From positions 6,462 to 70,461 of the forward strand of contig JBGAOA010000007.1 of assembly GCA_044222065.1 (NCBI GenBank): a DNA stretch of 64,000 nt, given 5' to 3'. Under the pieces are notes generated by a model. That model worked only from the letters and a program-made list of their open reading frames with translations. It searched no databases and was not told where the DNA came from. This DNA comes from Candidatus Eiseniibacteriota bacterium (GTDB taxonomy: Bacteria > Eisenbacteria > RBG-16-71-46). Positions 1,481 through 55,848 of this stretch are shown in pieces; position 1 is the first letter of the stretch; each line of letters starts with the position of its first letter. The position numbers and the translations under genes are program-made.

Positions 1481-4400
1481 GTGTCCCCATCCCTTGCCCC
1501 GCGCGTCCCACGCGCACTGTTGTCGGTTCTGCTGGCGCTGGCCGCCCTGCTTCCGGCGGCCGGAGTCCAGGCCAAGAAGGCGCCCGAGACGTCGGCGAAG
1601 CGCGCCGCGCTGCTCGCGCGGCCGCTCATGCTGCGCGACATCGAGAACGGCGGCGCGCTGCAGAAGAGCGGCGGCGCGCAGTCGAGCATCGGCACGGCGA
1701 CGGGCCGCCTGCTGCGCTACTGGCGCATGACGCCGGACCGCGGCGGCGTGTCGTCCACGGCGCCCCGCGCGATCGCCGAGTCGTACCTGACCTCGAACGC
1801 GGCGCGTCTCGGCCTCGTGGCTTCGAAGCTCGGCGACGACCTGTCGCTGTTCTCCGAGAAGGCGTCGCCGTCGGGCACGCACGTCCGCTACCAGCAGCAG
1901 GTGAACGGCGTGCCGGTGTATCGCGGCGACCTCGTGATCAAGGTGTCGAACGGCGGACAGATCTCGTCGGTGATGAACAACCTCCGTCCCGACGTGCAGA
2001 TCGACACGCAGCCGGCGTTCGACGCGAAGCGGGCGATCGAACTCGGCGCCGCGGCGATCGCGCCGACCGGGAAGGCGATCGGCACGTATCGCGCGGACCT
2101 CGAGGTGTTCGACCTCGAAGGCGGCGCGCGGCTCGGCTATCGCGTCAGCATTCCGAACGAAGATCCGATGGGCGACTGGCAGGTGTTCGTGGACGCGAAG
2201 GACGGCAAGGTTCTCGGCATCGTGGACCGCGCCCAGTACGCGGACGGCACCGGCCAGGTCTTCGATCCCGATCCGCGCAGCAAGATGAGCGACAGCTCGT
2301 TCGTGGACAGCGGCGACGCCGACTCGGCGGTGCCGTTCCCGGCCGCGTACGACATCGTGAACCTGCTCGGCATGACGTTCTCGGCCGGCACGTACTCGCT
2401 GAGCGGCCCGTACGCGCAGCTCATCGACAACGAATCGCCGACCGTGGTGCCCGTCACCGCGACGCACGCCGACAGCTTCCGCTACCAGCGCAGCCCGTCG
2501 GGCTTCGAGGACGTGATGTGCTACTGGCAGCTGGACATGAGCCAGCGCTACATCCAGAGCCTCGGCTTCACGAACGTGAACAACCGCGTGCAGGGCGTGG
2601 ACTCGCACGGCCTCTCCGGCGCGGACAACTCGCATTACGTTCCTTCGACCGGAAACCTCGCGTTCGGCGAGGGCGGCATCGACGACGACGAAGACGCGGA
2701 CGTGATCTGGCACGAGTACGGCCACTCCATCCAGGACAACATCGTTCCGGGCTGGGGCGGCGGCCAGGAAGGCGCGATGGGCGAGGGCTTCGGTGACTAC
2801 TGGGCCCACTCGTACTCGCTGTTCAAGGCCCCGGGATTCCAGCCGCTGCACGTGTTCACGTGGGACGGCAACGGCGAGACGTGGCCGGGCCGCGTCGCGA
2901 TCGACGTGACGATGCACTATCCCGAGAACTGCTGCGGTGAGGTGCACGATTCCGGCACGCTGTGGTGCTCGGGCCTCATCGACGCCTACAACTCGGTCGG
3001 CCGGACGGCCATGGACCGCATCGTGCTCGACCACCACTTCGCCCTCGGCACGAGTGCGACGATGGCGGACGCGGCGGCGCAGATCATCCAGTCCGACTTC
3101 GACCTCTACGGCGGCGCGCACGTCTCGACGCTCGTCGCGAAGTTCGGGTTCTGGGGCTTCGTGAACCCGGCCGACTTCGTCCCGACGATCACGCACACCC
3201 CGCGCACGGACACCGAGGCTTCCGGCCCGTACGCGATCGTCGCGACGATCACGTCGGTGCAGCCGCTCGACCCGACGTCTCTCAAGGTCCACTACGGCGT
3301 CGGCGCCTTCACGAACGAAGTCACGATGACGCCGACCGCGAATCCGAACGAATACTCCGCTTCGATTCCGGATCTCGGTTCGAACGTCGACATCCGCTAC
3401 TACATCATCGCGAGCGACAACGTGGGCGGCACGTCCACGCACCCGGTCAATGCTCCGACCGCGTTCCACCAGTTCCACGTCGGTCCGGACGTGACGGCGC
3501 CGGTGATCACGCACACGGCGATCGGCAACTTCCCGCAGATCCAGTGGCCGGCGACGGTCAACGTGACCGTGACGGACAACCTCGGCGTGAACGCCGACTC
3601 GGTGCGCGTGAACTGGCAGAAGAACGGCGTTTCGCGCGGCGCGTTCTACCTGACGCGCGTCGGCCTCACGAACAACTGGACCGGCGCGTTCCCGGGCGTC
3701 AACGCGGACGTGTCGGTGGGCGACGTGATCGACTACCGCATCACGGCGCGCGACGTGGCTTCGACGCCGAACGTCGCGACGCATCCGGCGGTCGGCTTCC
3801 ACACGTTCAACATCATCGCGAGCCGCGGCACGATCCTCGTGCTCGACGACGACGAAGTGGCCTCGCACTCGGCGGCGAAGCAGCTGACGGGCGAAGAGGC
3901 GAAGGCGGCGTCGGAAGCGGCGTCGGCGAAGCCGGCCGGTCCGCAGGGCCTGTCCGCGACGAACATCGCGGCGATCCTGAACGCGCGCGGCTTCACGGCG
4001 ACGGTCGAGGCGGCGAACACCTCGAACCCGGCGACGTGGTCGAACTACCAGCTGCTCGTGTCCTCGAGCGGCGGCAACGAGGGTCCGGTCGCAAACGCGG
4101 CGTACCGCACCGCGATCGAGAACTGGGTGGCGGGCGGCGGCAAGCTGCTCGTCGAAGGCGGCGAGGTCGCCTACGACGCCGCGTCGACGCCCGGCTATCC
4201 GACGTTCGCGGCGAACGTGCTCCACACGATCGACTGGGACGCGGACAACGCCGGCGCGCTGACGCTGCTCACGCCGGGACATCCGATCGCGACGACGCCG
4301 TACGCGATTCCGTCCGGGCTGGCGATCAACTACACGGCGTTCGGCAGCGAGGACTCGTACAAGCCGGTGGCGCCCGCGTACATCGTGTACGGCGTCACGG

Positions 4401-5524
4401 CGCAAGCCGGCAACGGCGGCATCCTCGTGTACGACGACACGCCGTCGCCGCAGAGCGCGCAGATCGTCGTGTTCGGCTTCGACTTCAAGGACCTCGCCGA
4501 CGCGACCGCGGCGGCGAACCTGCTCGACAACACGGCGACCTATCTGCTGGCGTCCGAGGGCGCGCCGACCGGCGCGATCGCCGGCCAGGTGCTGCTGTCC
4601 GGCACGTTGAATCACGCCGGCACGACCGTGACGCTGTCGCCGGGCGGCGCTTCGACGACGACGGACGCTCTCGGCAACTACTCGTTCGGCAGCCTCTACC
4701 CGGCGACGTACTCCGCGAGCGTGACGCACGCGGGCTACACGTCGGGCGGCGCGTCGGGAATCGTGGTGACCGGTGTCGGAACTGCGATCGTGCCGACGAT
4801 CGTGCTGTACCCGCAGGTGACGTATCAGTACTGCGCGTCGCCGGCGCTCGCGATTCCGGACAACAACCCGACGGGCGTGACGAGCAACCAGGTCGTGAGC
4901 GACGTGTTCGCGGTGGCGGGCGTCGAGGTGGACGTGAACATCACGCACACCTATCGCGGCGACCTCACGGTGGATCTGTCCAACGGCGTGCACACGGTGC
5001 GTCTGCACAACCGCACGGGCGGCAGCGCGGACAACATCGTCGGCACGTATCCGACGACGCTCACGGTCAACGGACCGGGCGCGCTCTCGGACTTCCTCGC
5101 CGACGGCTCCGCGCACACGTGGAGCCTCAAGGTGGTGGACGCCGCGAGCATCGACGTCGGCACCCTCAATTCGTGGTGTCTGCGGCTCAAGGCGGTTCCG
5201 GATTCGAGCGGAAACGTCGACGCGGGTCCGAGCGCGCTTCCGAAGGCGTTCGCGTTCGCGCCGGTCGCGCCGAACCCGGTGCGCGGCGGCCGCACGATGC
5301 TGCACTTCGCTCTGCCGTACGCCTCGGACGCTTCGCTCGCGATCTACGACGTCAGCGGACGCCTCGTGCGTTCGGTGGTGAAGGGGTCGCTCGAGGCCGG
5401 CAACCACGACGTCCTGTGGGACGGCCGCGACGAGAGCGGGACGCTCGTGCGTCCGGGTCTCTACCTGGCGAGCTTCCGCGCGGGGTCGTTCTCGGCCGCG
5501 CGCCGGATGGTGGTCGTGAAGTAA
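1481..5524 (+). CDS. Large secreted multi-domain zinc metalloprotease (clan MA, fungalysin/thermolysin-like HEYGH) with carboxypeptidase-regulatory-like and proprotein-convertase P domains and a Por-secretion-tail-like C-terminus
   Basis: GTG start at 1481, 5 nt after GGAGG, followed by signal peptide VSPSLAPRVPRALLSVLLALAALLPAAGVQA. Zinc-binding motif WHEYGHSIQD plus downstream EGFGDYWAHS. P-domain-like segment DLTVDLSNGVHTVRLHNRTGGSADN. C-terminal tail LAIYDVSGRLVRSV...WDGRDESG...GLYLASFRAG. The opposite-strand ORF 1349..5407 is an Arg-rich artefact. Confidence 0.82.
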   Translation: MSPSLAPRVPRALLSVLLALAALLPAAGVQAKKAPETSAKRAALLARPLMLRDIENGGALQKSGGAQSSIGTATGRLLRYWRMTPDRGGVSSTAPRAIAESYLTSNAARLGLVASKLGDDLSLFSEKASPSGTHVRYQQQVNGVPVYRGDLVIKVSNGGQISSVMNNLRPDVQIDTQPAFDAKRAIELGAAAIAPTGKAIGTYRADLEVFDLEGGARLGYRVSIPNEDPMGDWQVFVDAKDGKVLGIVDRAQYADGTGQVFDPDPRSKMSDSSFVDSGDADSAVPFPAAYDIVNLLGMTFSAGTYSLSGPYAQLIDNESPTVVPVTATHADSFRYQRSPSGFEDVMCYWQLDMSQRYIQSLGFTNVNNRVQGVDSHGLSGADNSHYVPSTGNLAFGEGGIDDDEDADVIWHEYGHSIQDNIVPGWGGGQEGAMGEGFGDYWAHSYSLFKAPGFQPLHVFTWDGNGETWPGRVAIDVTMHYPENCCGEVHDSGTLWCSGLIDAYNSVGRTAMDRIVLDHHFALGTSATMADAAAQIIQSDFDLYGGAHVSTLVAKFGFWGFVNPADFVPTITHTPRTDTEASGPYAIVATITSVQPLDPTSLKVHYGVGAFTNEVTMTPTANPNEYSASIPDLGSNVDIRYYIIASDNVGGTSTHPVNAPTAFHQFHVGPDVTAPVITHTAIGNFPQIQWPATVNVTVTDNLGVNADSVRVNWQKNGVSRGAFYLTRVGLTNNWTGAFPGVNADVSVGDVIDYRITARDVASTPNVATHPAVGFHTFNIIASRGTILVLDDDEVASHSAAKQLTGEEAKAASEAASAKPAGPQGLSATNIAAILNARGFTATVEAANTSNPATWSNYQLLVSSSGGNEGPVANAAYRTAIENWVAGGGKLLVEGGEVAYDAASTPGYPTFAANVLHTIDWDADNAGALTLLTPGHPIATTPYAIPSGLAINYTAFGSEDSYKPVAPAYIVYGVTAQAGNGGILVYDDTPSPQSAQIVVFGFDFKDLADATAAANLLDNTATYLLASEGAPTGAIAGQVLLSGTLNHAGTTVTLSPGGASTTTDALGNYSFGSLYPATYSASVTHAGYTSGGASGIVVTGVGTAIVPTIVLYPQVTYQYCASPALAIPDNNPTGVTSNQVVSDVFAVAGVEVDVNITHTYRGDLTVDLSNGVHTVRLHNRTGGSADNIVGTYPTTLTVNGPGALSDFLADGSAHTWSLKVVDAASIDVGTLNSWCLRLKAVPDSSGNVDAGPSALPKAFAFAPVAPNPVRGGRTMLHFALPYASDASLAIYDVSGRLVRSVVKGSLEAGNHDVLWDGRDESGTLVRPGLYLASFRAGSFSAARRMVVVK

Positions 5525-5553
5525 CGCGGTTCCCTGCAGCCTGTCGTACGCGC

Positions 5554-5590
5554 GGCCCCCGGGGTTTCGTCCCCGGGGGCCGTTCGCGTC
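5554..5590 (+). terminator. Strong GC hairpin downstream of the protease gene; possible terminator without a clear U-tract
   Basis: GGCCCCCGGGG-TTTCGT-CCCCGGGGGCC perfect 11-bp inverted repeat. Confidence 0.4.
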
Positions 5591-5874
5591 CGCGCAGGAA
5601 GGCGTGTCCGTTCGTCAGGACGGCCGCTCGTCTGTCAGGCAGGCCCTGACGGAGCGTCGGTCAGGGCGCGGACGAACGCGTGCTCGAGGGGCACCGAAGG
5701 CGCGCCAATCGCCCGCCCGAGCGCACTGGACCGCCGTCACGATCCGGTGGAACGACCGCGGCACGCGCCATGCCATGAAGCCTCCCGACGGGATTCCGAC
5801 GGTTTCGTCCGCCTCGGCGGTCCGGCCCGGATGGCGTGCTCGCCTGCGGACTTCCTCGCGCGAAGGAGGCTGCG

Positions 5875-6492
5875 ATGCGCGAATTACGCATTCACGGGCG
5901 CGGCGGGCAGGGAGCGGTGATCGCCTCCAAGCTGCTCGCGACGGCCCTGTTTCTCGAAGGCAAGTCGGTGCAGTCGTTCCCCGCGTTCGGCGTCGAGCGC
6001 CGCGGCGCCCCGGTCGCGGCGTTCCTGCGCGTGAGCGACGGACCGATCCTGCTGCGCTGCGAAGTGACGACGCCCGACGACCTCATCGTGCTCGATCCCA
6101 CGCTCGTCCGCGCCGTGGACGTGACGTCGGGCCTGAAGGACGGCGGAGGCATCCTGATCAACGCCGACGGCGGGCCCGAATCGTTCGCGGAACTCGGGCG
6201 CCGCTTCCGAGTCGGCACCGTGAACGCGAGCGCGATCGCGCAGCGTCACGGCCTCGGCTCGCGCACCCAGCCGATCGTGAACACCGCGATCCTCGGAGCG
6301 TTCGCGACGTTCTCGGGGCTCGTTTCGCTCGAGTCCGTGTGCCGGGCGATCGCGAGCGACGTGCCGATCAAGACCGATGCGAACGTCGCCGCGGCGCGCG
6401 AAGCGGGCGCGGCCGCGCTCGTGGTCGTCGCCGGGCAGGCCGCCGCACGTGCGTTCGGCCCCGCGGGCGGACCGGAGGTGCTCCGTGCCTGA
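5875..6492 (+). CDS. porG: 2-oxoacid (pyruvate):ferredoxin oxidoreductase gamma subunit
   Basis: MRELRIHGRGGQGAVIASKLL... is a typical PorG/KorG N-terminus. GAAGGAGG RBS lies upstream of the ATG at 5875. Confidence 0.88.
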   Translation: MRELRIHGRGGQGAVIASKLLATALFLEGKSVQSFPAFGVERRGAPVAAFLRVSDGPILLRCEVTTPDDLIVLDPTLVRAVDVTSGLKDGGGILINADGGPESFAELGRRFRVGTVNASAIAQRHGLGSRTQPIVNTAILGAFATFSGLVSLESVCRAIASDVPIKTDANVAAAREAGAAALVVVAGQAAARAFGPAGGPEVLRA

Positions 6493-8320
6493 CGCGCGCG
6501 CGAACTCCGATCTGCGGCACGGCGTGCCGCCCGTGGCGGTGAGCAGCACCTCGACCCGCGTCAACAAGACCGGGTCGTGGAAGTACATCCGGCCGATCTA
6601 TCGCGACCGCGTCGCGCCCTGCAACCAGGGCTGTCCGGTCGGCATCGACATCGAGGGCTACATGAACCTCGCGCGCGAGGGGCGGGTCACGGAGGCGCGC
6701 GACCTGCTGCTGCGCGAGAACCCGCTGCCCGCGACCACGGGCCGGGTCTGCTACCACCCGTGCGAGTCGTCCTGCAATCGCGCGTCGTTCGACCAGCCGG
6801 TCGCGATCCACGCGGTCGAGCGCATGCTCGGCGACCTCGCGCTCGAAGCGCCGGTCGAACGGCCGGAGCGCACGCGCGACGAAACGGTCGCCGTCGTCGG
6901 CGCGGGCCCCGCGGGGCTCGCGTGCGCGTACCACCTCGCGCGCCTCGGCTACGGCGTCACCGTGTACGATGCCGATCCGGAGCCGGGCGGCGTGCTGCGC
7001 TGGGGCATTCCCGAGTACCGGCTTCCGAAGCGCGTGCTCGCGGGCGAGATCGCGCGCATCCGGGCGCTCGGCGTGCAGTTCGAATCGGGCGTGCGCGTCG
7101 GCCGCGACCTGCCATTCGAGGGGCTCTCGAAGCACGACGCCGTGTTCCTCGCGACCGGCGTCCACCGGAGCCGTCCGCTCGGCATCCCGGGCGAGGACTT
7201 CTCCGGCGTGTGGCGCGGACTCGAGCTGCTGCGCCGCGTGAACGCGGGCGAACGTCCGGACCTCGGCCGGCGCGTCGTCGTCGTGGGCGGAGGCAATACC
7301 GCCATGGACTGCGCGCGCACCGCCGTGCGGCTCGGCGCCGAGGTGACGGTGCTGTACCGGCGCGGCCGCGCCGAGATGCCGGCCAATCACGAAGAGGTCG
7401 AAGAGGCGCTGCACGAAGGTGTGCGGTTCGGCTTCCTCGCGGCGCCGCTCGCCGTGCTCGCGGACGAACGCGCGCCGGAAGAGGACGCGCTCGAGGCCAT
7501 CGGCGATACGTTCGGCGAGTTCGAATCGCTCGATGCGCGCCCGCGCGTCGCCGGCCTGCGCTGCATCCGCATGCAGCTCGGCGCGCCGGACGCCTCGGGT
7601 CGCCGCCGTCCCGAGCCGGTCGAGGGCTCGGACTTCACGGTGCCGTGCGACACGCTCGTGACCGCGCTCGGCGAGGACGCGGAACTCGAGTACCTGCCGA
7701 AGGAGCTCCAGACGCGCGGCGGCGCGATGCACGTAAGCCCGCTCGGGGCGACGAGCCGCACCGCGGTGTTCGCCGGCGGCGACATTACCGAGGAGCCGCA
7801 CACGGTGGCGTTCGCGATCGGCTCCGGGAAGCGCGCCGCGGTCGGCATCGACCACTACCTGCGGCTGCTGAACGGCGAGGACTCCGACGCGGTCGAGATC
7901 GGGGAGTTGCGCTTCGGACCCGAGGGCAACGTCTCGGCGACCCGCTGGCGCGACGACGACCCGGTGCTGCGCGTGGATCCGGTGAACGAGGTCGTGCGCT
8001 TCGAGGCCATCAACCCGGCGCACTTCGAGCACGCCGCGCGGCACGCGGACCGGCTGCGGCCGGCGCACGACTCCCGCCACGACTTCGGCGAAGCGAACCT
8101 CGGGCTCGCCCGCGAGGACGCGCTCGCCGAGGCGCGGCGCTGCTTCAACTGCGGCGTCTGCAACGGCTGCGAAGTGTGCCTCGTGTTCTGTCCCGACGTG
8201 GCGATCTCGCGGCGTTCGGACGGACGCTTCGACATCGCCTACGACTACTGCAAGGGCTGCGGCGTGTGCGCCGAGGAGTGCCCGCGCGGTTCGATCGTGA
8301 TGACGCGGGAGGGACTGTGA
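6485..8320 (+). CDS. Fusion protein: GltD-like NAD(P)H/FAD oxidoreductase (N-terminal Fe-S, FAD and NAD Rossmann motifs) joined to a C-terminal 2x[4Fe-4S] ferredoxin (PorD-like delta subunit)
   Basis: GTG at 6485 overlaps the porG stop. The N-terminal Cys cluster CNQGCPVG...CYHPCESSCNRA resembles GltD. Dinucleotide-binding motifs VAVVGAGPAGLACA and VVVVGGGNTAMDCA are present. The C-terminus carries CFNCGVCNGCEVCLVFCP...CKGCGVCAEECP, two ferredoxin CxxCxxCxxxCP motifs. It sits in the canonical porD position. Confidence 0.8.
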   Translation: MPDARANSDLRHGVPPVAVSSTSTRVNKTGSWKYIRPIYRDRVAPCNQGCPVGIDIEGYMNLAREGRVTEARDLLLRENPLPATTGRVCYHPCESSCNRASFDQPVAIHAVERMLGDLALEAPVERPERTRDETVAVVGAGPAGLACAYHLARLGYGVTVYDADPEPGGVLRWGIPEYRLPKRVLAGEIARIRALGVQFESGVRVGRDLPFEGLSKHDAVFLATGVHRSRPLGIPGEDFSGVWRGLELLRRVNAGERPDLGRRVVVVGGGNTAMDCARTAVRLGAEVTVLYRRGRAEMPANHEEVEEALHEGVRFGFLAAPLAVLADERAPEEDALEAIGDTFGEFESLDARPRVAGLRCIRMQLGAPDASGRRRPEPVEGSDFTVPCDTLVTALGEDAELEYLPKELQTRGGAMHVSPLGATSRTAVFAGGDITEEPHTVAFAIGSGKRAAVGIDHYLRLLNGEDSDAVEIGELRFGPEGNVSATRWRDDDPVLRVDPVNEVVRFEAINPAHFEHAARHADRLRPAHDSRHDFGEANLGLAREDALAEARRCFNCGVCNGCEVCLVFCPDVAISRRSDGRFDIAYDYCKGCGVCAEECPRGSIVMTREGL

Positions 8321-9483
8321 AGAAAGTCATCGTGGGCAACCACGCCGTCTCGTGGGGCGTCGCGCTCGCGCGCGCCGAAGTCATCGCCGCGTATCCGATC
8401 ACGCCGCAGACGCAGATCGTCGAGGAGCTGGCCGAGATGACGGACGACGGCCGGCTGAACGCACGCTTCATCAAGGTCGAGTCCGAGCACTCCGCGATGG
8501 CGGCGTGCATCGGCGCCTCGGCCGCGGGCGTGCGCGCGTTCACGGCCACGTCCTCACAGGGCCTGCTGCTCATGCACGAACTGCTGCACTGGGCGGGCCT
8601 CGGACGGCTGCCGATCGTGATGGCCGACATCAATCGCGCGGTCGCTCCCGGCTGGAACATCTGGACCGACCAGAACGACACGCTCGCCCAGCGCGACACG
8701 GGCTGGGTGCAGCTCTACTGCGAGAACAACCAGGAAGTGCTCGACACGACCGTGCAGGCGTTCAAGCTCGCCGAGCGCGTCGGGCTGCCGGTGATGATCG
8801 TGCTCGACGCGTTCTTCCTGTCGCACACGTCCGAGCCGGTGGACATCCCGGACGCCGCGGACGTGGACGCGTTCCTGCCGAAGCGCGACGCCGCGCTCAA
8901 GCTCGACACCGCGGACCCGCACGCGTTCGGCGCGCTGACGACGCCGGCCGTGTACATGGAGATGCGGCTGCGCCAGCAGGAGGCCTTCGACGGCGTGCCG
9001 GATGCCTACCGCGCGATCGACGCGGAGTGGGCCGCGCGCTTCGGGCGCTCGTGGTCGCCGGTCGAGGCCTATCGCTGCGACGGGGCGGACACGGTGCTCG
9101 TCACGTCCGGGACCGTGACCTCGACCGCGCGCCACGTCGTGAACGAGCGGCGCGCGCGCGGCGAGAAGGTCGGCCTCGTGAAGGTGAAGATGTTCCGGCC
9201 CTTCCCGACGCACCTCCTGCGCGAGACGCTCGCCGGGATCCCGCGCGTCGCGGTGCTCGATCGCAACATCTCGCCGGGGCACGGCGGGATCTTCGCCGAG
9301 GAGCTGCGTTCGTCGCTCTACGACCTCGCGGACTGGCTGCGCCCGCGCGTGGACGGCTACATCGTCGGGCTCGGCGGGCGCGACGTGACGCCGGCCGTGA
9401 TCGAGGAGTGCCTCGACCGCACCCGCGCGAAGGCGGCGTCGAGTTCGGTCCGGGAAGACCAGTGGGTGGGGGTGAAGCCATGA
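8317..9483 (+). CDS. porA: 2-oxoacid:ferredoxin oxidoreductase alpha subunit
   Basis: GTG at 8317 overlaps the upstream stop (GTGA). VKKVIVGNHAVSWGVALARAEVIAAYPITPQTQIVEEL is a typical PorA N-terminus. Confidence 0.9.
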   Translation: MKKVIVGNHAVSWGVALARAEVIAAYPITPQTQIVEELAEMTDDGRLNARFIKVESEHSAMAACIGASAAGVRAFTATSSQGLLLMHELLHWAGLGRLPIVMADINRAVAPGWNIWTDQNDTLAQRDTGWVQLYCENNQEVLDTTVQAFKLAERVGLPVMIVLDAFFLSHTSEPVDIPDAADVDAFLPKRDAALKLDTADPHAFGALTTPAVYMEMRLRQQEAFDGVPDAYRAIDAEWAARFGRSWSPVEAYRCDGADTVLVTSGTVTSTARHVVNERRARGEKVGLVKVKMFRPFPTHLLRETLAGIPRVAVLDRNISPGHGGIFAEELRSSLYDLADWLRPRVDGYIVGLGGRDVTPAVIEECLDRTRAKAASSSVREDQWVGVKP

Positions 9484-10376: not shown

Positions 10377-10385
10377 TCCGCGGCC

Positions 10386-11402: not shown

Positions 11403-11431
11403 TGCGCGGCGCCGCGGCTATACTGCGGCGC

Positions 11432-17367: not shown

Positions 17368-17377
17368 CGCCGGCGGC

Positions 17378-24179: not shown

Positions 24180-24224
24180 ACGGACCGCGGCCCGCGCCGC
24201 GCTCCGTCCGCTCGCGCGGGACCG

Positions 24225-35819: not shown

Positions 35820-36632
35820 ATGAACCTGCTTCGCTCCACGCTCACGCTCACGGCCCTCGGACTCGTGCTCATGGTCTCCTCGGTGCAGGCGCAGTCCACC
35901 TGGAACAGCGTCACCGTGCGCTGGACCACGCCGGGTGACGACAGTCTCGCGGGCACGGCCTCGGAGTTCGACCTGCGCTACTCGACTTCGCCGATCACGA
36001 TCGCGAACTTCGCCTCGGCGACCCGATTCCTCGCCACGCCCACGCCCGCGACCCCGGGGACGCAGCAGTCCGTGGTCGTGACGGGGCTCCAGCCGAGCAC
36101 GACCTACTATTTCGCGATCAAGACCGGCGACGACGTCCCGAACTGGTCGGGGCTCTCGAACGTCGTCTCGAAGACGACGACCGCGGCGCCCGACGACGTG
36201 CGTCCGGCGGCGATCGCGAACGTCGCGATCACGGCGCTCACCGACTCGTCCGCCGCGCTCGCGTGGACGGCGACCGGCGACGACAGCCTGACGGGCACGG
36301 CGACGACCTACGACGTCCGCTACTCGACGGCGCCCATCACGCTCGCGAACTGGGCGGCCGCGTCGCAGGCGACCGGTGAACCGGCGCCGGCGGTCTCGGG
36401 CACCGCGCAGTCGTTCACGGTGCGCGGTCTCGCGCGCCAGACCACCTACTACTTCGCGATCCGGGTCGCGGACGAGGGCGGCAATCCGTCGGCGCTCTCG
36501 AACGTTCCGAGCGGCACCACGACCGATACGCTCGCCCCGGCCGCCATCCGCGACCTGGCCGCGAGCTTCGTGTGGTTCGGCTCGACCCTGAGCGCGGTGC
36601 TGCCGCGGCAGCCGGAGCCTTCGTCCCGATGA
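35820..36632 (+). CDS. Secreted protein with three fibronectin type III-like repeats
   Basis: Signal peptide MNLLRSTLTLTALGLVLMVSSVQA. Three repeats of the pattern W(T/A)ATGDDSL(A/T)GTA..YD(L/V)RYST(S/A)PIT(I/L)ANW...TTYYFAI. Confidence 0.72.
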   Translation: MNLLRSTLTLTALGLVLMVSSVQAQSTWNSVTVRWTTPGDDSLAGTASEFDLRYSTSPITIANFASATRFLATPTPATPGTQQSVVVTGLQPSTTYYFAIKTGDDVPNWSGLSNVVSKTTTAAPDDVRPAAIANVAITALTDSSAALAWTATGDDSLTGTATTYDVRYSTAPITLANWAAASQATGEPAPAVSGTAQSFTVRGLARQTTYYFAIRVADEGGNPSALSNVPSGTTTDTLAPAAIRDLAASFVWFGSTLSAVLPRQPEPSSR

Positions 36633-37642
36633 TCTTCTTCACGACGCCGAGACGCCCGCGCACGGGCCGGCCCGCGTGGCGGCGATACTTCGCCGGCATC
36701 GTCGCGGTGCTGCTCGCGCTGCTCGCGCCGGCGCTCGTGAACGCGCAGACGCCGACCGACAGCCTGACGCTGACGTGGACCGCCACGGGCGACGACTCGA
36801 CGATCGGCACGGCGACGCTCTACGACATGAAGTACTCGACCTCGCCTATCACGCTCGCGAACTGGAGCTCGGCGCCGAGCGTGCCCGGCATGCCGGCGCC
36901 GCTGCCGTCCGGCACGCGCCAGACCGTGAGGCTGCGCGGCCTGTCGCGCGACACGACCTACTACGTCGCGATCCGCACCCGCGACGACGCGAGCAACTGG
37001 TCCGCGCTCTCGAACGTCGTGCGCTGGGACTGGACGCTCGACACGGCGCCGCCGTCGGCGCCGACCGGCGTCGCGGCCGCGAACGAAGGCGACAACGTGC
37101 GCGTGACGTGGAACGCGAACGCGGAGGCCGACCTCGCGGGTTACTTCGTGTACCGCGCGACCGCCGCGGGCGGACCGTTCACGAAGCTCACGCCGTCGCT
37201 TCTCACCGGCACGACGCAGTACCTCGACACGAACGTCCCGTCGGGCGCCGCGTCCGTGTGGTACCGCGTGACCGCGCGCGACCTCAACCTGAACGAGAGC
37301 GCGCAGAGCGCCGCGGCGCAGGCGGTCGTGGGCGGCACGAACGGCGTCGTCGCCGACTGGACGCTCTCGCCCGGCTATCCGAACCCGAGCCGCATCGGTC
37401 AGCCCGTGTGCTTGCCCATGGTCATCCCGGCGAGCGGCGCGGGCGAGGCGGTCGTGGACATCCTGAACGTCGCGGGCTCGCGCGTGCGGAGGCTCTACGT
37501 CGGCTCCGCGCCGAGCTGCCTCGGCGGCATCGAGTGGGACGGCCGCAACGACGCAGGCGCCGACGTCGCCCCCGGCGTGTACCGCGCGTGGCTGATCGTG
37601 GGCGGCCAGCGCAACGTCATCAAGCTGGTGCGCCAGCCGTGA
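36629..37642 (+). CDS. Secreted protein with FN3-like repeats and a Por-secretion-tail-like C-terminal domain
   Basis: ATG overlaps the upstream stop (ATGA). It has its own signal peptide. Repeats have the same pattern as the upstream gene. C-terminal tail VVDILNVAGSRVRRLY...WDGRNDAGADVAPGVYRAWLIVGGQRNVIKLV. Confidence 0.72.
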   Translation: MIFFTTPRRPRTGRPAWRRYFAGIVAVLLALLAPALVNAQTPTDSLTLTWTATGDDSTIGTATLYDMKYSTSPITLANWSSAPSVPGMPAPLPSGTRQTVRLRGLSRDTTYYVAIRTRDDASNWSALSNVVRWDWTLDTAPPSAPTGVAAANEGDNVRVTWNANAEADLAGYFVYRATAAGGPFTKLTPSLLTGTTQYLDTNVPSGAASVWYRVTARDLNLNESAQSAAAQAVVGGTNGVVADWTLSPGYPNPSRIGQPVCLPMVIPASGAGEAVVDILNVAGSRVRRLYVGSAPSCLGGIEWDGRNDAGADVAPGVYRAWLIVGGQRNVIKLVRQP

Positions 37643-37656: not shown

Positions 37657-39345
37657 ATGAGACTCCGGATCGCACCGTTCAGCCTTGTCCTCGCGCTCAC
37701 GCTCGCGCCCGCCACGGCGCTCGCCGGCATCGAGCAGGCGGGCACGACGGCCGCGAACTTCCTCAGCGTCGGCTCGAGCCCGGCGACGCTCGCGATGGGC
37801 GGCGCGGGACTCGCGCGCACGGGCGAGCTCGGACTCACGACGTGGAACGCGGCGACGCTCGCGTGGATCGGCGAGACCCGCTACACGTTCTCGCACGCGT
37901 CGCTCACCGAGCAGAGTTCGCAGGAGTGGGCGGCTGCGGCCGGCCGCATGGGCCAGGGTCCGTGGCGCTGGGCGATGACCGGCCTCTACCAGGGCGACGG
38001 ATCGTTCGATGGCCGCGACGCGCTCGGCAATCCGACCGGCAGCTTCAACGTTTCGAGCATGGCGATCGGCGGCACGGTCGCGCGCAGCTTCAACGGGCTG
38101 TCGGGCGTCGGCGTCGGCTTCAAGTACGTGAGCGAGAACCTCGGCGGAGTCACGGGCTCGGGGATCGCGATGGACGCGGGCTTCACTTACGCCGCCGGCC
38201 CCGTCAGCCTCGGTGCCGCCGCGCAGAATGCGTTCGGCAACATGTCCTACTCCGGCGCGAAGTACTCGATGCCTTCGAACTACGGCGCGGGCGTCGCGCT
38301 GAACGTCCCGGCGAGCGGCGTCACGCTCGCGCTCGACGCGAACTTCCCGAAGGCCTACTACAACGACGTGCGCTTCGGCGCGGAGTGGCGCTACCGCGAG
38401 GCGATCGCGCTGCGCGGCGGCTACCGCATGGAACTCGGCGCGGGCGACGGCGAGCCGCTCTCGGGCCCGACGTTCGGCCTCGGCGCCGGCGCGAACGGAT
38501 TCTGGTTCGACTACGGCTTCATCGTCGGCGGCGGCGGCGCGAGCGGACAGCACCGCCTCGGCCTGACGTTCCGTCCCGGCGTGCTCAATCCGGGCGCGAC
38601 CTCGGTCGCCGCACCCGGCTCGGGCTACTCGACGGGATCGTCGAAGCCGCGCCTCGCGGACTCCGAGTCGCCGCGCGTCGAGAAGTCGCCGAAGCCTGCG
38701 AAGCCCGCGAAGCCGGCGAAGGTCGTGGCGCCGAAACCCGAGCCCGTCGCGAGCGCCGAGCCCGTGAAGCCGGCGAAGCCCGCGAAGGCCGAGAAGCGCG
38801 CGGTGAGCGTCGGCGACGATTCGCCCGTGCTCACGGACACGCCGCAGGCCGTGAAGATCGAGCCGACGAAGCCGGCCGAGCCGGCGTCCGACACCGAGGC
38901 CGCGGTCGTGTCGTCTCCGAAGACGAAGGCGCCGAAGGCCGAGAAGGTGAAGACGCCGAAGCCCGAGAAGGTGAAGGTCGAGAAGCCGAAGAAGACCAAG
39001 ACCCAGCCCGACGCTCCGCTCGCCCCGCTCACCGTGATCGCGCCCGAAGGCGGCGCGGTCGCGATGGCTGCGCCGAGCGAGCCGGCCGAAGCCGCGGCGC
39101 CGAAGGCGGCCGAGCCGGTGCGCGTCGAGGCTCCGAAGCCCGCGAAGACCGAGGCGCCGGCGCCGGTGGTCGCGAAGCCCGCGTCGCGCCCCGACAAGGT
39201 GAAGGTCGGCGCGGACGAGTCGCTCTCCGACATCGCGAAGCGCTGGGACACGAGCGTCGCCGCGATCATGATGGAGAACAACCTCGTCAGCGACCGCGTG
39301 AAGCCGGGTCAGACGCTCAAGCTGCCGCCGCCTTCGAAGAAGTGA
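37657..39345 (+). CDS. PorV/PorQ-family-like outer-membrane beta-barrel fused to a Lys/Pro/Ala-rich low-complexity linker and a C-terminal LysM domain
   Basis: GAGGAAGGA RBS. Signal peptide MRLRIAPFSLVLALTLAPATALA. N-terminal motif GTTAANFLSVGSSPATLAMGGAGLA resembles the PorV-family signature. A barrel of about 300 aa. PAKPAKPAK/KPEKVK repeats. C-terminal VKVGADESLSDIAKRWDTSVAAIMMENNLVSDRVKPGQTLKLP is a LysM fold. Confidence 0.68.
   Translation: MRLRIAPFSLVLALTLAPATALAGIEQAGTTAANFLSVGSSPATLAMGGAGLARTGELGLTTWNAATLAWIGETRYTFSHASLTEQSSQEWAAAAGRMGQGPWRWAMTGLYQGDGSFDGRDALGNPTGSFNVSSMAIGGTVARSFNGLSGVGVGFKYVSENLGGVTGSGIAMDAGFTYAAGPVSLGAAAQNAFGNMSYSGAKYSMPSNYGAGVALNVPASGVTLALDANFPKAYYNDVRFGAEWRYREAIALRGGYRMELGAGDGEPLSGPTFGLGAGANGFWFDYGFIVGGGGASGQHRLGLTFRPGVLNPGATSVAAPGSGYSTGSSKPRLADSESPRVEKSPKPAKPAKPAKVVAPKPEPVASAEPVKPAKPAKAEKRAVSVGDDSPVLTDTPQAVKIEPTKPAEPASDTEAAVVSSPKTKAPKAEKVKTPKPEKVKVEKPKKTKTQPDAPLAPLTVIAPEGGAVAMAAPSEPAEAAAPKAAEPVRVEAPKPAKTEAPAPVVAKPASRPDKVKVGADESLSDIAKRWDTSVAAIMMENNLVSDRVKPGQTLKLPPPSKK
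38640..39200 (+). repeat. Coding low-complexity K/P/A/E-rich region including tandem PAK tripeptide repeats
   Basis: AAGCCNGCGAAGCCNGCGAAGCCGGCGAAG tandem codon repeats at about 38688-38722, then KPEPV/KAPKAEKVKTPKPEKVK-type repeats. Confidence 0.7.
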
Positions 39346-49874: not shown

Positions 49875-52487
49875 TCAGCGCACGCGCACGACGCGAGCGT
49901 GCGCGAGCGTGCGGCCGTCGGCGATGAGCCGTGCGAAGTAGAGCCCCGCCGCGACGCGCGCCGGAATCGCCGCCGCGAGTTCGCGCGCGCCCGCGGGCGC
50001 GGGACCGCGCCACAGCGAGGCGACGCGGCGGCCCTGCACGTCGTAGAGCGCCCAGTCGAGGTCGCGCACGCCGGCTCCGAGCGCGAGCGACAGACGCAGC
50101 CGGTCGCGCGCGGGGTTCGGCCACGGTGCGCCGACCGCCGCGCGCGGCGCGGATGGCTCGACGTCGAGCGCCTCGCCGTCCGGGTAGAGCACGCGAACGT
50201 GGTCCACGAACCAGCCGTCGAGGCCGTAGAAGTCGTCCGTGAGCATGCGGAAGCGGAAGCGCAGCGGTCCGGCGCCGAACGCGCCGAGGTCCACCGTTTC
50301 CGTGCGCCAGCCGTTCGAGACGCCGCTCCAGCACGGCGTGCCCGTCTCGAACGGGTCGCCGCCGAGGATGAACGTGTGCGTGTAGCCCGCGGCCGGTGTC
50401 GCGACGAGCCAGGGGCCGTTGTTCACCGAGACCTCGACGCGCGCGCCGTCCCACGCGCGCGTCGCGTTCGCCTGCTCGAGCGCGTAGCGGTGGTCGAAAC
50501 GCAGCCGCGTGCCCGGGACGACGTCGTTGAGGAGCGGCGAGTAGAGGACGGCGTCGAGGTGCGGCGGATAGACGCCGCCCGGCGCGCCGCACTTCCAGCT
50601 CGTGCCGCCCGGAGGCGAGGCGTCCTCGGTCGAGAATCCCCACGCGTCGCGGTACGACCACCAGTAGGGCAGGTGGAAGAACCCGTCGGCCCCGTTCTCG
50701 AAGTCGTGCAGCCGGTCGCGGGTCACGCGCACCGTGTCGAACGCGGCGTTCGAGTACGCCACGTTGTGCGCGGCCGAGGCGTCGCGCGCGACGAAGCGGT
50801 ACGTGAAGAACTGCCCGGGCTGGAGGCCCCAGCCGAGGTCGATCGTGAACGAATCGCGTCCGGCGCGCGTCGTCGGGAAGACGCCGAGCGCGCCGCCGTT
50901 CGCGCGCGTCTCGGCCCACACCGTGTCGAGGCCGACGTTGTCCGTGATGCGCGCGAGCAGCCGCCGCGGCATGGATCCGGACGCGGTTTCGACCTGAACG
51001 CGGTGAGTGATCGCGGGCGGCGTCGTGTCGGGGCCGATCGTGAACGCGTGCGGCGCGAGCGCACCCGCGGGCGGATCGTCGGCCGCGATGCCGGCCGAGT
51101 CGGTCGCGGCGTGCAGGTAGTACTCGAACGCGCCGCTCGCGAACGTCGCGGGGAAGACGGCCGCGAACGAATCCGCGCCCGCGCTCGCGAACGGCACGAC
51201 GTTCCAGGGCCCGCCGCCCGCCGGCCGCCAGTGGAGCGTGAGGCCGCCCGCGGGAACCGCGAGCCCGAGCCCTCCGCCCGTGATGCGCACGCGCGCGCCG
51301 AGCGGCCGTGGCGCCGCGGCGTTCTCGGAGTCGCCGAGCGGCGTGTGCGCGATCTCGACGCTCCCCGCGCGCGAGTCGAGCGCCGTGCTCACCGCGCCTC
51401 GGTACCACGTCGCCTCGGCGAACCACGTCTCGAAGCGCGCGCGGAACGACTCGAGCTTCGCGAGATCGGCCGTCGACGGCGGCGCGCCGGGCGGCGTGAC
51501 GAGCGCAATTCCGAGGCGGAACGCCTTCGGGCTCGTCGCCGCGTCGGGCACGCGCGGACCTTCCGCGGCGATGACGTCGGACACGTTCCAGGTCGTCTTG
51601 CGCCCGTCGGCGCCGAGTCCCACGAACGGATCGGAATGCACGACGTAGGTGTTCGGAGGGTTGAAGTCGTGCGGGTCGTTCACGACGAACACGGACGGCG
51701 TCTCGAACGCCGGGCGCAGGCCCATCAGGTACTGGTCGAGCGGCGTGTAGCCGGTCGAGACGCTGTCGGTGACGAACGTGTCGGGGGCGACCTCGCGCCA
51801 GCCGCAGCCCTCCATGATCGAGGACTGGTCCGAGAAGAAATTCCAGTGCTGCTCGTCGCGGCCGAGCAGCGCCGGCACGCGATCGCCGGCCGAGTCCACG
51901 TACACGTAGCTCAGCCACGCGTGCCCGAACTCGTGGCCGAGCAGGTCCATCGCGGTCATGCCGTTCGCCCACGTCGTCGAATCGGGTTCGTCGAAGTAGC
52001 GTTCCAGGCCGTTCATCACGAGCACCGCCTGCAGCCGGCCGGCGCTGCCCGAGCCGCCGGGGAGGTCGTAGGCCGGCAGCCCGATGCCGGCGACGTCGTT
52101 CTTCAAGAGGTACGACGCCGCGAGTGCGCCGGGCGAGCCGAGCCACACGTTGCTGCCGCTCGTGAAGTAGAACGCGAGTTGGTCGTAGTCGTCGCCGTGG
52201 GTGCGGTAGAAGGCGCGCGCCGCGGCGAACACGTCGAACAGGCGGTGGCCGACCTTGTCGTTGAAGAACAGCGTGCCGTCGTCCTCGATCACCGCGATCT
52301 CGCCGGCGTCGTAGCGCGCGGCCGCGGGCGCGGCGAGAGCGGCACATCGCGCGCGACGCGCGCCCAGAGAGGGATGCCGTGTTCGCGAGCGAGGCGCTGC
52401 ACGCGGAGCCCGGGGCCGGGGCGGCGAGCACGTCGCGCGCGGCGGCGGCCGGCGCCACCGGCGCGGCCGGAGCGCGTCCGCGGGCAC
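49875..52487 (-). CDS. Secreted HExxH-motif (LLGHEFGHAW) protein, putative zinc metallopeptidase, with a Por-secretion-tail-like C-terminus; N-terminus unresolved
   Basis: HExxH motif LLGHEFGHAWLSY. C-terminal tail PNPARDRLRLSLAL...WALYDVQGRRVASLW...GLYFARLIADGRTLAHARVVRV. The first ~60 residues from M(52487) are Arg/Pro-rich without a convincing signal peptide. No in-frame ATG, GTG or TTG lies near the hydrophobic stretch CAALAAPAAA. Confidence 0.62.
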   Translation of the reverse strand: MPADALRPRRWRRPPPRATCSPPRPRAPRAAPRSRTRHPSLGARRARCAALAAPAAARYDAGEIAVIEDDGTLFFNDKVGHRLFDVFAAARAFYRTHGDDYDQLAFYFTSGSNVWLGSPGALAASYLLKNDVAGIGLPAYDLPGGSGSAGRLQAVLVMNGLERYFDEPDSTTWANGMTAMDLLGHEFGHAWLSYVYVDSAGDRVPALLGRDEQHWNFFSDQSSIMEGCGWREVAPDTFVTDSVSTGYTPLDQYLMGLRPAFETPSVFVVNDPHDFNPPNTYVVHSDPFVGLGADGRKTTWNVSDVIAAEGPRVPDAATSPKAFRLGIALVTPPGAPPSTADLAKLESFRARFETWFAEATWYRGAVSTALDSRAGSVEIAHTPLGDSENAAAPRPLGARVRITGGGLGLAVPAGGLTLHWRPAGGGPWNVVPFASAGADSFAAVFPATFASGAFEYYLHAATDSAGIAADDPPAGALAPHAFTIGPDTTPPAITHRVQVETASGSMPRRLLARITDNVGLDTVWAETRANGGALGVFPTTRAGRDSFTIDLGWGLQPGQFFTYRFVARDASAAHNVAYSNAAFDTVRVTRDRLHDFENGADGFFHLPYWWSYRDAWGFSTEDASPPGGTSWKCGAPGGVYPPHLDAVLYSPLLNDVVPGTRLRFDHRYALEQANATRAWDGARVEVSVNNGPWLVATPAAGYTHTFILGGDPFETGTPCWSGVSNGWRTETVDLGAFGAGPLRFRFRMLTDDFYGLDGWFVDHVRVLYPDGEALDVEPSAPRAAVGAPWPNPARDRLRLSLALGAGVRDLDWALYDVQGRRVASLWRGPAPAGARELAAAIPARVAAGLYFARLIADGRTLAHARVVRVR

Positions 52488-53493: not shown

Positions 53494-55848
53494 ATGCTCG
53501 ACCGCGCGCGCCCTCCTGTTGGTCTGCTCGTCACCCTCGTGGTGGTCGGCTCACTCGGCCTGCTGCCGGCGCCGCTCGTCCGGGCCGAACCGAGCCCCGA
53601 ACGCGGCGTGCTCCAGACCGGTCCAGTCGCGATCGCGCGCACGACGGCCGAGATCATGGCCTCGACCGGCGATGAGGCCGCCGCGCCGCCGCGTCCGGCG
53701 CTCGTGATTCCGCGGCCCGGCGCCAACGCGATCGAACCTGCGCAGGCGGCCCTGGGTTCCGCGTCCGATCCCCTGGCACCGCTCTACCTCACTGGCCCCG
53801 CGGACCCGCCCGCGATCTTCTCGCCGCAGACGGTCGCGCTGGCGTTCAACGGAATGACGCGGGCCGAGATCACGAACTACGTGCCCGACGACATGGGCGC
53901 GGTCGGGCCGCAACAGTTCGTCGTGCACGTCTCGGGCCGCATCCGCACGTTCACGAAGTCCGGCGTCCCCGACGGCGTGCTCGACGTGACGACGGACGCA
54001 TTCTTCTCGTCCGTCCGCACGCCCGCCGGCGGGGGCGTCGCGTTCAGCACGACGATCGACCCGCGCATCCGATACGACCGCGCGACGGCGCGCTGGTTCC
54101 TGATCATGTCCGAAGCCACGTGTGCGGACGGCGCGTGTTCCCGGCTCACGCCCAATCGCCTGCTCGTCGCCGTGAGCGACGCCGCGAGTGCGGGGGTGAT
54201 CTCGCCCGCGACCGTGTGGAGGTTCTTCTACCTCTCCGCCGACGCCACGGCCTTCAGCGACACGCCCACGCTCGGTGTGGACGCGCTCGCGCTGTACGTC
54301 GGCGTGGACGCCTTTGGCGTGTCCCCGGCGAGTCCGGCCTATCTCGGTTCCAACGGCGTCGTGATCCGCAAGAGTTCCATCCTCGGTACGGGGCCGATCG
54401 TCTTCACTCGGTTCGAGGACATCACCGGCATCGTGGACGGTCCCTTGAATCCCGCCGGCGTGGACAACGCCGACCCGGCCGCGAACGAGGGCTATTTCAT
54501 CGGCCCGAGCCCGTTCAGTTTCGGTCGTCTGTGCCTGCGGCGAATCAGCGATCCGGGCGGAGTCCCGGCGATCTCCCCGACGATCGCGTTGACCGTTCCG
54601 GCGACTTCGCCTCCCTTGTCCGTCCCGTCCTTCGGAACGTCGACGCGGCTCGCTGCGGGCGACGACCGCCTCGCCGGCGCCACGATGCGCGACGGCGAAG
54701 TGTGGACCGCACACTGCATCGCGGTGAACGCGTCCGGCGTCGCGACCACGAGCACGAGCGTGGGGCGGGACGGGATCCGATGGTATGCGCTGACCGGCAT
54801 TCGCAGCGTGGACAACGGCGGAGTTCCCGCGGTCGTCCAGAGCGGGACGATCTTCGATCCGTCCGCCACGACGTCGAACGCGCGCCAGCACTGGAATCCT
54901 TCGCTCGCGCTGACCGGCCAGCGCCACGCGGCGTTCGGCTTCACGACCGCCGGCTCCCCGTACTTCGTGAACGCCGCGACCACGGGTCGGCTCGTCTGGG
55001 ACGCGCCCGGAACGACGCAGGCGCTCTCGCTGATCACGGCGAGTCCGGGCGCCTTCACTTCGGCGCTCAGCTCGTGGGGCAACTACTCCCACACGTCCGT
55101 GGACCCGCTCGACGACATGACGGTGTGGACGATCCAGCAGTACGCGACCGGGGCGGCGACGTGGGCGTGCCGCGTCGCGAAGTTGCTCGCACCGCCGCCC
55201 GCCACACTGTCGGACGTGCCCGCGGTCGCGGCCGGACACGCGTCCGTGAGCGTCATCGTGACGGGCATTTCGCTGGGTGGTTCGGCGTTCTTCGATCCCG
55301 GACCCAACCTGCCCGCGCCGGCGCTGCCGTACGCGCACGTGTCCGTGACGCTCGCGCCGAACGGATTCAGCGGTACGCCGCCGGTCGTGAACGCGGTCAC
55401 GGTGCTCGATCCCACGCACCTGCAGCTCGACCTCAACACCGTCGGAGCGACGCCGTCCGACACGAGTTCGGCGTACGACGTGACGGTGACGAACCCCGAC
55501 GGACAGTCGGTGATCGGCGCGGCGCTCTTGAAGGTGCTGCCGCCATCGAGCGATGTGGGGGGCGATCGCGCGCTCGCGACCGGCCTGCGCGGGGTTTCGC
55601 CCAATCCCGCGCACGGCGACATCCACGTCGCGTTCGCGCTCGAGCGTGCGGCGCGCGTGCGGGTGAGCGTGCTGGACGTGCAGGGCCGCGAGGTCGCCGT
55701 GCTCGACGACGGCGCGCGCAACGCGGGCGAGCACGCTGCGCGCTGGGACGGACGCCGCGGCGGAGCGCGCGTCGCGGCCGGCGTGTACTTCGTGCGCTTC
55801 GTCGCGGACGGCCTCGAGCAGCAGCGCCGACTCGTCGTGGCGCACTGA
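53494..55848 (+). CDS. Large secreted hypothetical protein (784 aa) with a Por-secretion-tail-like C-terminal domain
   Basis: GAGGAG RBS. Signal peptide MLDRARPPVGLLVTLVVVGSLGLLPAPLVRA. C-terminal tail PNPAHGDIHVAFAL...VSVLDVQGREVAVL...WDGRRGGARVAAGVYFVRFVADG...RLVVAH. Confidence 0.7.
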   Translation: MLDRARPPVGLLVTLVVVGSLGLLPAPLVRAEPSPERGVLQTGPVAIARTTAEIMASTGDEAAAPPRPALVIPRPGANAIEPAQAALGSASDPLAPLYLTGPADPPAIFSPQTVALAFNGMTRAEITNYVPDDMGAVGPQQFVVHVSGRIRTFTKSGVPDGVLDVTTDAFFSSVRTPAGGGVAFSTTIDPRIRYDRATARWFLIMSEATCADGACSRLTPNRLLVAVSDAASAGVISPATVWRFFYLSADATAFSDTPTLGVDALALYVGVDAFGVSPASPAYLGSNGVVIRKSSILGTGPIVFTRFEDITGIVDGPLNPAGVDNADPAANEGYFIGPSPFSFGRLCLRRISDPGGVPAISPTIALTVPATSPPLSVPSFGTSTRLAAGDDRLAGATMRDGEVWTAHCIAVNASGVATTSTSVGRDGIRWYALTGIRSVDNGGVPAVVQSGTIFDPSATTSNARQHWNPSLALTGQRHAAFGFTTAGSPYFVNAATTGRLVWDAPGTTQALSLITASPGAFTSALSSWGNYSHTSVDPLDDMTVWTIQQYATGAATWACRVAKLLAPPPATLSDVPAVAAGHASVSVIVTGISLGGSAFFDPGPNLPAPALPYAHVSVTLAPNGFSGTPPVVNAVTVLDPTHLQLDLNTVGATPSDTSSAYDVTVTNPDGQSVIGAALLKVLPPSSDVGGDRALATGLRGVSPNPAHGDIHVAFALERAARVRVSVLDVQGREVAVLDDGARNAGEHAARWDGRRGGARVAAGVYFVRFVADGLEQQRRLVVAH

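Follow-up and report, generated by a model that had tools for sequence, protein, structure and literature searches.

Four proteins encoded in the 64 kb stretch of DNA analysed here (the window, with a G+C content of 71.4%) end in one and the same C-terminal tail. On sequence comparison, these tails are probably type-A-like sorting domains (C-terminal domains, CTDs) belonging to a type IX secretion system (T9SS) in a member of Candidatus Eisenbacteria, and the T9SS interpretation given in an earlier reading of the same DNA (the original prediction) is supported. T9SS biology rests almost wholly on Bacteroidota, and the same kind of C-terminal tag on Eisenbacteria proteases and adhesin-like proteins widens the known range of the system. 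As a database fact the tail in Eisenbacteria is not new, since the public annotation pipeline labels it already: orthologs carry the NCBI pipeline names "T9SS type A sorting domain-containing protein" and "PorV/PorQ family protein". A more interesting item than the tails themselves is a pair which the original prediction missed, formed by a tailed fibronectin type III (FN3) protein and a PorV/PorQ-family barrel fused to a LysM domain.

The Four Tails and Their Mutual Homology

All four open reading frames (ORFs) named in the original prediction are present, translate as described, and carry the same C-terminal module. Their products are referred to here as p1 (a 1347-aa protease-like protein), p2 (the FN3 protein), p3 (an HExxH protein), and p4 (a 784-aa protein). 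The tails were located with a hidden Markov model (HMM) of the four sequences; the E value on each line is that with which a leave-one-out HMM recovers the omitted tail.

5246..5521, plus strand: tail of p1, a type-A-like T9SS CTD / FlgD-Ig-like domain (E 7.6e-15)
37355..37639, plus strand: tail of p2 (E 7.1e-10)
49887..50141, minus strand: tail of p3, without WDGR; TIGR04183 18.6 bits, below cutoff (E 2.9e-11)
55576..55845, plus strand: tail of p4 (E 9.4e-17)

The interval 5281..5524, to which the original prediction had drawn attention, lies within the p1 tail. When the four-tail HMM is compared with all 663 six-frame segments of the window, only these four match, in every case at the extreme end of the ORF. 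Pairwise BLASTP of tail against tail gives 34-44% identity with E values of 5e-6 to 9e-16. Because the omitted tails are recovered at E 7e-10 to 9e-17 and the best unrelated segment of the window reaches only 0.016, the likeness reflects real homology and is not a by-product of base composition; the four tails align as a single family, as had been proposed. The shared layout consists of PNP near the start, a (Y/L)(D/N)VxG(R/S)xV strand, G(L/V)Y, and a final hydrophobic strand that contains a basic residue. The original prediction gave one motif for all four proteins, and the module indeed ends each of them; its WDGR element is missing from p3, which has a 7-residue deletion at this place.

A G+C content of 71% produces many long spurious ORFs with Ala-, Arg-, and Gly-rich translations, and on these grounds the likeness could be imagined to arise by chance, from composition, or from misread frames. 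Such an origin is extremely improbable. The leave-one-out E values lie between 1e-10 and 1e-17, and no other segment of the window falls below 0.016; curated family thresholds are exceeded, the homologs of the tail profile number in hundreds, and the structure model is confident. In addition, the ORFs display coding-type patterns of G+C at third codon positions, and identical proteins exist in the public record: p1, p2, and p4 are found there with exactly the boundaries first reported, and p3 in a shorter version (805 aa, start at 52292).

Family Membership of the Tail

The tails were scored against TIGR04183 of NCBIfam ("T9SS type A sorting domain", cutoff 23 bits) and, in Pfam, against PF18962 (Por_Secre_tail, cutoff 27) and PF13860 (FlgD_ig, gathering score 27). 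TIGR04183 recognizes p1 (29.2 bits) and p4 (32.4 bits), and the call to the T9SS type A family is extended to p2 and p3 because all four tails are mutually homologous. PF13860 is reached by p1 (42.5 bits), p2 (31.7), and p4 (34.9) and has no match in p3. It outscores PF18962, which gives a sub-threshold match in p4 only (22.7 bits), because the centre of the tail carries the FlgD-like signature WDGxDxxGxxxxxGxY.

Sequence comparison of the tail profile with the PDB returns first the Ig domain of flagellar FlgD (7eh9, 3osv; E 2e-7 to 3e-6), over profile positions 21-80 only, and next the CTDs of PorZ (5m11) and PorU (6za2) at E 1e-3, over positions 7-82 including the PNP strand. The predicted structure is a confident model of a compact 7-strand Ig-like beta-sandwich, whose best match among solved folds is the T9SS CTDs, with the PorU CTD at the top.

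The conservation pattern was evaluated on an alignment of 52 tails. The loop glycine of DxxGRxV is present in 52/52 and GxY is invariant, whereas PNP is found in about 40 (39-42). It has been reported that the Lβ3β4 glycine is essential in RgpB, where replacing the residue blocks secretion (PMC11285876), and this position matches the DxxGRxV loop glycine of the tails. Type A CTDs also possess a near-invariant, functionally important C-terminal lysine (PMC10994853), with which a lysine or arginine located 5-6 residues from the C-terminus aligns in 47/52 tails (26 R, 21 K). In the window this residue is arginine in p1, p3, and p4, and lysine proper in p2 only. As read from the alignment, arginine often stands in for the type A lysine in these GC-rich genomes.

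The type A CTDs of Bacteroidota (RgpB, PorU, PorZ, mirolase, RemZ and NucA of F. johnsoniae) are 7-strand Ig-like sandwiches of ~80-90 aa at the extreme C-terminus of otherwise unrelated Sec-exported enzymes and adhesins, and the tails of the window share with them the PNP strand, the DxxG loop glycine, GxY, and the basic residue 5-6 positions from the end. The differences concern the FlgD-like centre, the frequent arginine in place of the conserved lysine, and the host, which belongs to Eisenbacteria and not to Bacteroidota. With the Ig domain of FlgD (PF13860; hook cap), the common part is the core DxxGRxV ... WDGxD..G....GxY. From the sequence comparisons, the most fitting description of the tail is a type-A-like T9SS CTD with a strong FlgD-like signature in its middle.

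A different explanation would make the tail an ordinary FlgD-like Ig domain that serves structure, adhesion, or binding to the wall or surface, has no part in secretion, and stands last in these proteins by chance, while export across the outer membrane follows another route. FlgD_ig outscores Por_Secre_tail in Pfam, FlgD is the best PDB sequence match, the Ig-like fold is common, and the T9SS core is not demonstrated in the window and related loci; moreover, the window contains a secretin-bearing cluster resembling a type IV pilus or a type II secretion system (T2SS). This explanation is nevertheless improbable. The domain keeps a strict C-terminal place in ~90% or more of >140 occurrences, with one domain per protein on many unrelated enzyme bodies, and the homology reaches the PNP strand and the basic C-terminal strand, aligned as in the PorU and PorZ CTDs (7-82) and not as in FlgD (21-80). 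A PorV/PorQ-family barrel gene lies beside one cargo gene. Neither an N-terminal FlgD domain nor flagellar genes occur in the window, and its secretin-containing cluster has PilT and pilins, which makes it a type IV pilus and not a T2SS. An assignment of the tails to the flagellar hook-cap protein itself was rejected, as the FlgD equivalog models give 18-33 bits, on the tail only, against cutoffs of 230-383.

Lineage and Distribution

The lineage call rests on homologs of the window proteins. About 45 full-length orthologs of p1, with 53-61% identity and identical domain order, are known, and those that are named, at 55-61% identity, belong to Candidatus Eisenbacteria/Eiseniibacteriota. Homologs of the barrel gene carry the same names, so that the non-Bacteroidota lineage postulated in the original prediction is confirmed. 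Matches to the tail profile bear the names Eisenbacteria and Gemmatimonadetes.

The C-terminal place of the tail is retained in relatives. It coincides with the ORF end in 4/4 window genes and in 16/16 genes of related loci. In a set of 79 metagenome loci (672 kb, 128 tail ORFs), fetched by the tail motif from 8 closer tails, it ends at most 3 residues from the stop in 114/128 ORFs. The bodies of the 51 largest of these ORFs comprise subtilases, papain-, C10-, and C25-type peptidases, an amylase, InhA-like MAM domains, FG-GAP, and lectin-like repeats; by domain content, these proteases, glycosidases, and adhesin-like repeats resemble known T9SS cargo sets. PF18962 occupies the identical C-terminal place in distant relatives of p1 from Bacteroidetes, Ignavibacteriae, Zixibacteria, and WOR-3. 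A related locus from a Bacteroidota metagenome-assembled genome (JAUXOG010000010.1, 3-13692) contains four consecutive large ORFs which all end in the tail (tail HMM E 1e-17 to 4e-22), and at the level of profile matches this shows a tail family that is continuous across phyla.

Related bodies may also end in other modules. The p4 body belongs to a family of 758 cluster representatives at E<=1e-30, whose members terminate variously in Por_Secre_tail, FlgD_ig, CHU_C (the type B T9SS signal), dockerin, or RTX. Similarly, NCBIfam holds separate models for T9SS-, myxosortase-, and rhombosortase-dependent M36 peptidases. The exchange of C-terminal modules on comparable bodies is as expected of a sorting tag.

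The FN3 Operon and the PorV/PorQ-LysM Barrel

The gene of p2 is the second of three overlapping genes:

35820..36632, plus strand: FN3x2 protein of 270 aa, secreted, without tail; first gene of the operon (two Pfam fn3 domains; signal peptide MNLLRSTLTLTALGLVLMVSSVQA|Q; no tail-HMM match)
36629..37642, plus strand: p2, secreted FN3 protein of 337 aa with sorting tail (fn3; FlgD_ig 31.7 bits; 4-nt overlap with both neighbours)
37639/37657..39345, plus strand: PorV/PorQ-family barrel fused to LysM (NF033709; 568-aa reading; overlaps the p2 stop by 4 nt)

Against NF033709, the model of the PorV/PorQ family, the third protein scores 101 bits where 90 are required, and the match extends from position 1 to position 324 of the 326 in the profile. 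It consists of a signal peptide, a predicted 14-strand FadL-like barrel (aa ~30-315, pLDDT ~90), a Pro/Lys/Ala-rich linker of ~200 aa (~316-515) that is predicted to be disordered, and a LysM domain (520-565). According to precomputed Pfam lists, LysM is present in nearly all of the best 120 of 210 barrel homologs, and several homologs from Eisenbacteria are already named "PorV/PorQ family protein". The original prediction had considered that the tail might be a mere Ig-like fold in a genome devoid of T9SS-like machinery; this is countered in part by the PorV/PorQ-family barrel, which directly follows the cargo gene p2 and is the only component of that machinery found in the window.

The arrangement is conserved. 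The order FN3x2, p2, barrel-LysM recurs in the loci L010/L011 and L012, and in L008/L009 the p2-type gene and the barrel gene are kept, whereas the FN3x2 gene is missing; the barrels of all these loci are 40-60% identical to that of the window. In each of them, the ORF directly upstream of the barrel gene bears the tail. The tails of p2 orthologs are unusually conserved in WDGxNxAG, APGVYRAWL, and LVRxP, the last two being almost invariant. An expanded operon is seen in L012 (an 873-kb Joint Genome Institute (JGI) contig, 5303-11665), which contains FN3x2, FN3 plus tail, a 332-aa unknown protein, a second, longer FN3 plus tail, and barrel-LysM. In the window as in L010 and L012, the operon stands divergently beside the type IV pilus cluster. 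Its only neighbour of this kind in L008 is the prepilin peptidase gene, and for this reason the pairing of FN3-tail protein and barrel is considered independent of the pilus genes. The literature search retrieved no paper describing a PorV/PorQ-LysM fusion or an FN3-CTD/PorV-PorQ-LysM pair.

PorV is a shuttle and PorQ the anchor of PorZ; the barrel of the window differs from both by the added linker of ~200 aa and the LysM domain, and by its apparent partner, which is one dedicated FN3 cargo instead of all type A cargo. A parallel is provided by the PorP-PorE-type B and SprF-SprB pairs (PMC9143113), in which a cargo gene stands beside that of its own FadL-like carrier barrel and a link to peptidoglycan fixes a non-mobile surface protein, as would hold for p2. 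In the PorP-PorE system, the barrel is PorP/SprF-like, the CTD is of type B, and peptidoglycan is bound by a separate lipoprotein, PorE (OmpA_C-like). The window pair instead combines a type-A-like CTD on the cargo with a PorV/PorQ-like barrel that itself carries the peptidoglycan-binding LysM.

Search for the Secretion Machinery

The evidence for the remaining machinery is negative within the DNA that was covered. Pfam annotation of ~55 window genes yields no T9SS family. The 79 metagenome loci contain neither a relative of the barrel-LysM protein nor a non-tail ORF of >=1500 aa, the size of SprA, which is a weak negative. In the same 672 kb, PorM was not found with an HMM made from four Bacteroidales PorM sequences (PMC7323717 supplement); this negative is also weak, and Sov, PorK, PorL, and PorN were not searched. 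Taken over ~0.9 Mb of related loci, the core-gene searches are negative and carry little weight. A PorU candidate in the metagenome locus L026 (203-3625), with Peptidase_C25, an InhA-like/choice-of-anchor J domain, and the tail, was discarded: it scores 46 and 29 bits against 450 and 420, belongs to a low-GC organism, and has no adjoining barrel gene. The idea that p4 might be a PorZ-like component was likewise abandoned, since its body has no PDB or NCBIfam support.

Several observations weigh against a T9SS assignment. No SprA/Sov, PorL/M, PorK/N, PorU, or PorZ is detected with Pfam and NCBIfam in the 64 kb window. [quoted passage not shown] The TIGR04183/FlgD-Ig-like pattern announced in the original prediction holds for TIGR04183 in p1 and p4; p3 remains at 18.6 bits, p2 has no match, and PF18962 stays below threshold. 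The barrel is far under the equivalog cutoffs of PorV (NF033710, 27.8 bits versus 250) and PorQ (NF033711, 71.5 versus 220), so that it is not PorV or PorQ proper and is classified as a family member only. In p3, no recognisable signal peptide is read by eye in any frame of either version of the protein. The literature searches found no paper that ties Eisenbacteria/Eiseniibacteriota to T9SS. Finally, NCBI taxonomy lists Eiseniibacteriota with unplaced candidate phyla, outside the Fibrobacteres-Chlorobi-Bacteroidetes (FCB) group, to which, following the original description and GTDB, we take the phylum to belong.

Some of these points would suit a reduced or different outer-membrane pathway specific to the lineage, in which CTD-like tags and PorV/PorQ-like barrels operate without the SprA translocon and the GldLM-type motor. 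The carrier-type barrel is the sole component found, it is no PorV/PorQ equivalog, and its linker and LysM lie outside the 326-position family model. Around the 128 tail genes, the 672 kb hold no PorM and no barrel paralog (the weak negative given above), and the literature search gave nothing on T9SS in Eisenbacteria. Such a pathway is nonetheless unlikely. T9SS genes may, according to one report, also occur in a number of further FCB phyla, Gemmatimonadetes among them (PMC11285876), and the tails are continuous in sequence with the CTDs of Bacteroidota and Ignavibacteria. The blank in core genes, moreover, reflects the window and related loci and not a completed genome search. A type-A-like T9SS sorting domain thus remains the preferred reading of the tails.

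Proposed Mechanism

In Bacteroidota, the loops of a PorV-type carrier bind the folded CTD at the translocon after Sec export, and the two leave together. Type A cargo is then released or moved to lipopolysaccharide by PorU; type B cargo remains on barrels of the PorP kind, and PorE can link these to peptidoglycan (PMC10994853, PMC9143113, PMC11285876). The original prediction pointed to an active pathway of tail-dependent export and surface attachment; for this window, such a pathway is an inference. A Sec signal peptide, read in p1, p2, and p4, would direct the precursor into the periplasm. By homology, the folded 7-strand Ig-like CTD would then be recognized at an outer-membrane translocon, jointly with a carrier barrel of the PorV type, for passage of the protein to the cell surface. 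The tail may subsequently be cleaved, the protein being released or linked to a glycolipid, or it may be kept as a handle on the carrier.

By analogy, p1, p3, and p4 would be ordinary cargo, and p2 would stay on the LysM-tethered barrel as its dedicated partner, in the manner of PorP-PorE with PG1035 or of PorQ with PorZ. The carrier of p2 is probably the PorV/PorQ-family barrel of the next, overlapping gene. Since the periplasmic C-terminus of this barrel is made of the linker and LysM, the FN3 protein would sit on a barrel pinned to peptidoglycan. This specific anchoring model, drawn from the analogous pairs, is tentative, and the evidence leaves it somewhat short of an even chance. The broader proposal, of a conserved three-gene Eisenbacteria module in which a wall-tethered T9SS-type barrel, joined to LysM through a linker that would span the periplasm, keeps a single dedicated cargo bound for good through a CTD that is not cleaved, is more doubtful still.

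If it were true, it would represent a new T9SS anchoring architecture, a single-chain equivalent of PorP-PorE for type A tails. If, in addition, the LysM barrel were the only PorV-like protein of the lineage, this would speak for a variant of the secretion system outside Bacteroidota that is fixed to the wall and does not shuttle. The p2 protein and the LysM-fused barrel constitute a concrete and testable cargo-carrier pair.

The Other Probable Cargo Proteins

The three remaining tail-bearing genes are the following:

1481..5524, plus strand: p1, 1347-aa secreted M36/fungalysin-like metalloprotease with sorting tail (Pfam/NCBIfam; identical protein in the NCBI record)
49875..52292, minus strand: p3, HEFGH protein with InhA-like MAM domain and sorting tail (805 aa in the record; ORF open to 52487/52658)
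53494..55848, plus strand: p4, secreted protein of 784 aa whose large N-terminal body is uncharacterised, with tail (signal peptide; TIGR04183 32.4 bits, FlgD_ig 34.9 bits)

In p1, a signal peptide is followed by an FTP propeptide (40.4 bits versus 21), an HEYGH motif, CarboxypepD_reg, P_proprotein, and the C-terminal tail; the Pfam threshold of Peptidase_M36 is barely reached (23.4 versus 23.3 bits). As an FTP/M36-like zinc protease with a sorting tail, it is similar to the T9SS-dependent M36 metallopeptidases (NF038113) and to their myxosortase- and rhombosortase-dependent cousins. It is not the NF038113 equivalog, because it reaches only 28.2 bits against a cutoff of 885 and has CarboxypepD_reg and P_proprotein as extra domains. 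The original prediction spoke of two metalloproteases. By motif the claim is reasonable for p1 (HEYGH) and p3 (HEFGH), but p1 is just at the M36 threshold and p3 fits no peptidase family.

The bodies of the four proteins had also been called otherwise unrelated. This applies to every pair except p1 and p3, whose bodies share ~220 aa with 28% identity (E 3e-11). The common region (p1 aa 570-782, p3 aa 379-592) contains two Ig-like modules that start with '(T/A)PPxITH' and correspond to no Pfam family.

Signal peptides were judged by eye from their n, h, and c regions and AxA-type cleavage sites. The description of all four proteins as secreted agrees with the signal peptides of p1, p2, and p4; for p3 secretion is not shown, because a signal peptide is recognisable in neither version. 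The gene of p3, on the minus strand, was originally given as 49875..52487, and the start in the record is a GTG at 52292; a CTG at 52367 would yield MGARRARCAALAAPAAA|RYD. The gene may be damaged at its 5′ end, wrongly started, or equipped with an unusual start codon. As to p4, its body of ~650 aa (53494-55575) has no sequence relative in Pfam, NCBIfam, or the PDB.

Other Features of the Window

The pilus cluster that adjoins the FN3 operon (22968-35069, minus strand) is a complete type IV pilus cluster, which comprises a prepilin peptidase, a secretin, PilM, a 415-aa unknown protein, pilins, PilC, PilB, and PilT, together with three small ORFs that are likely PilN/O/P. On the minus strand at 39406-40135, genes for a CrcB fluoride channel and a DUF190 protein lie directly downstream of a 2-oxoacid dehydrogenase E1 gene. 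An Rfam scan of the whole 64 kb detected no fluoride riboswitch or other RNA family, and a tRNA scan found none. Five ORFs with good coding statistics have no Pfam or NCBIfam match (57392-58654, 47888-48808, 46606-47217, 52744-53316, and 28203-29450); the one of 420 aa sits between the genes of a PMT_2-like glycosyltransferase and a methyltransferase. A cluster of the 2-oxoacid:ferredoxin oxidoreductase type occupies 5917-10376 on the plus strand (POR gamma, a flavoprotein with 4Fe-4S domains, POR_N, and a TPP-binding (thiamine pyrophosphate) protein), and the hydrogenase maturation genes HypF and HypB are located at 15025-18055. Together, these genes hint at an anaerobic or facultative metabolism.

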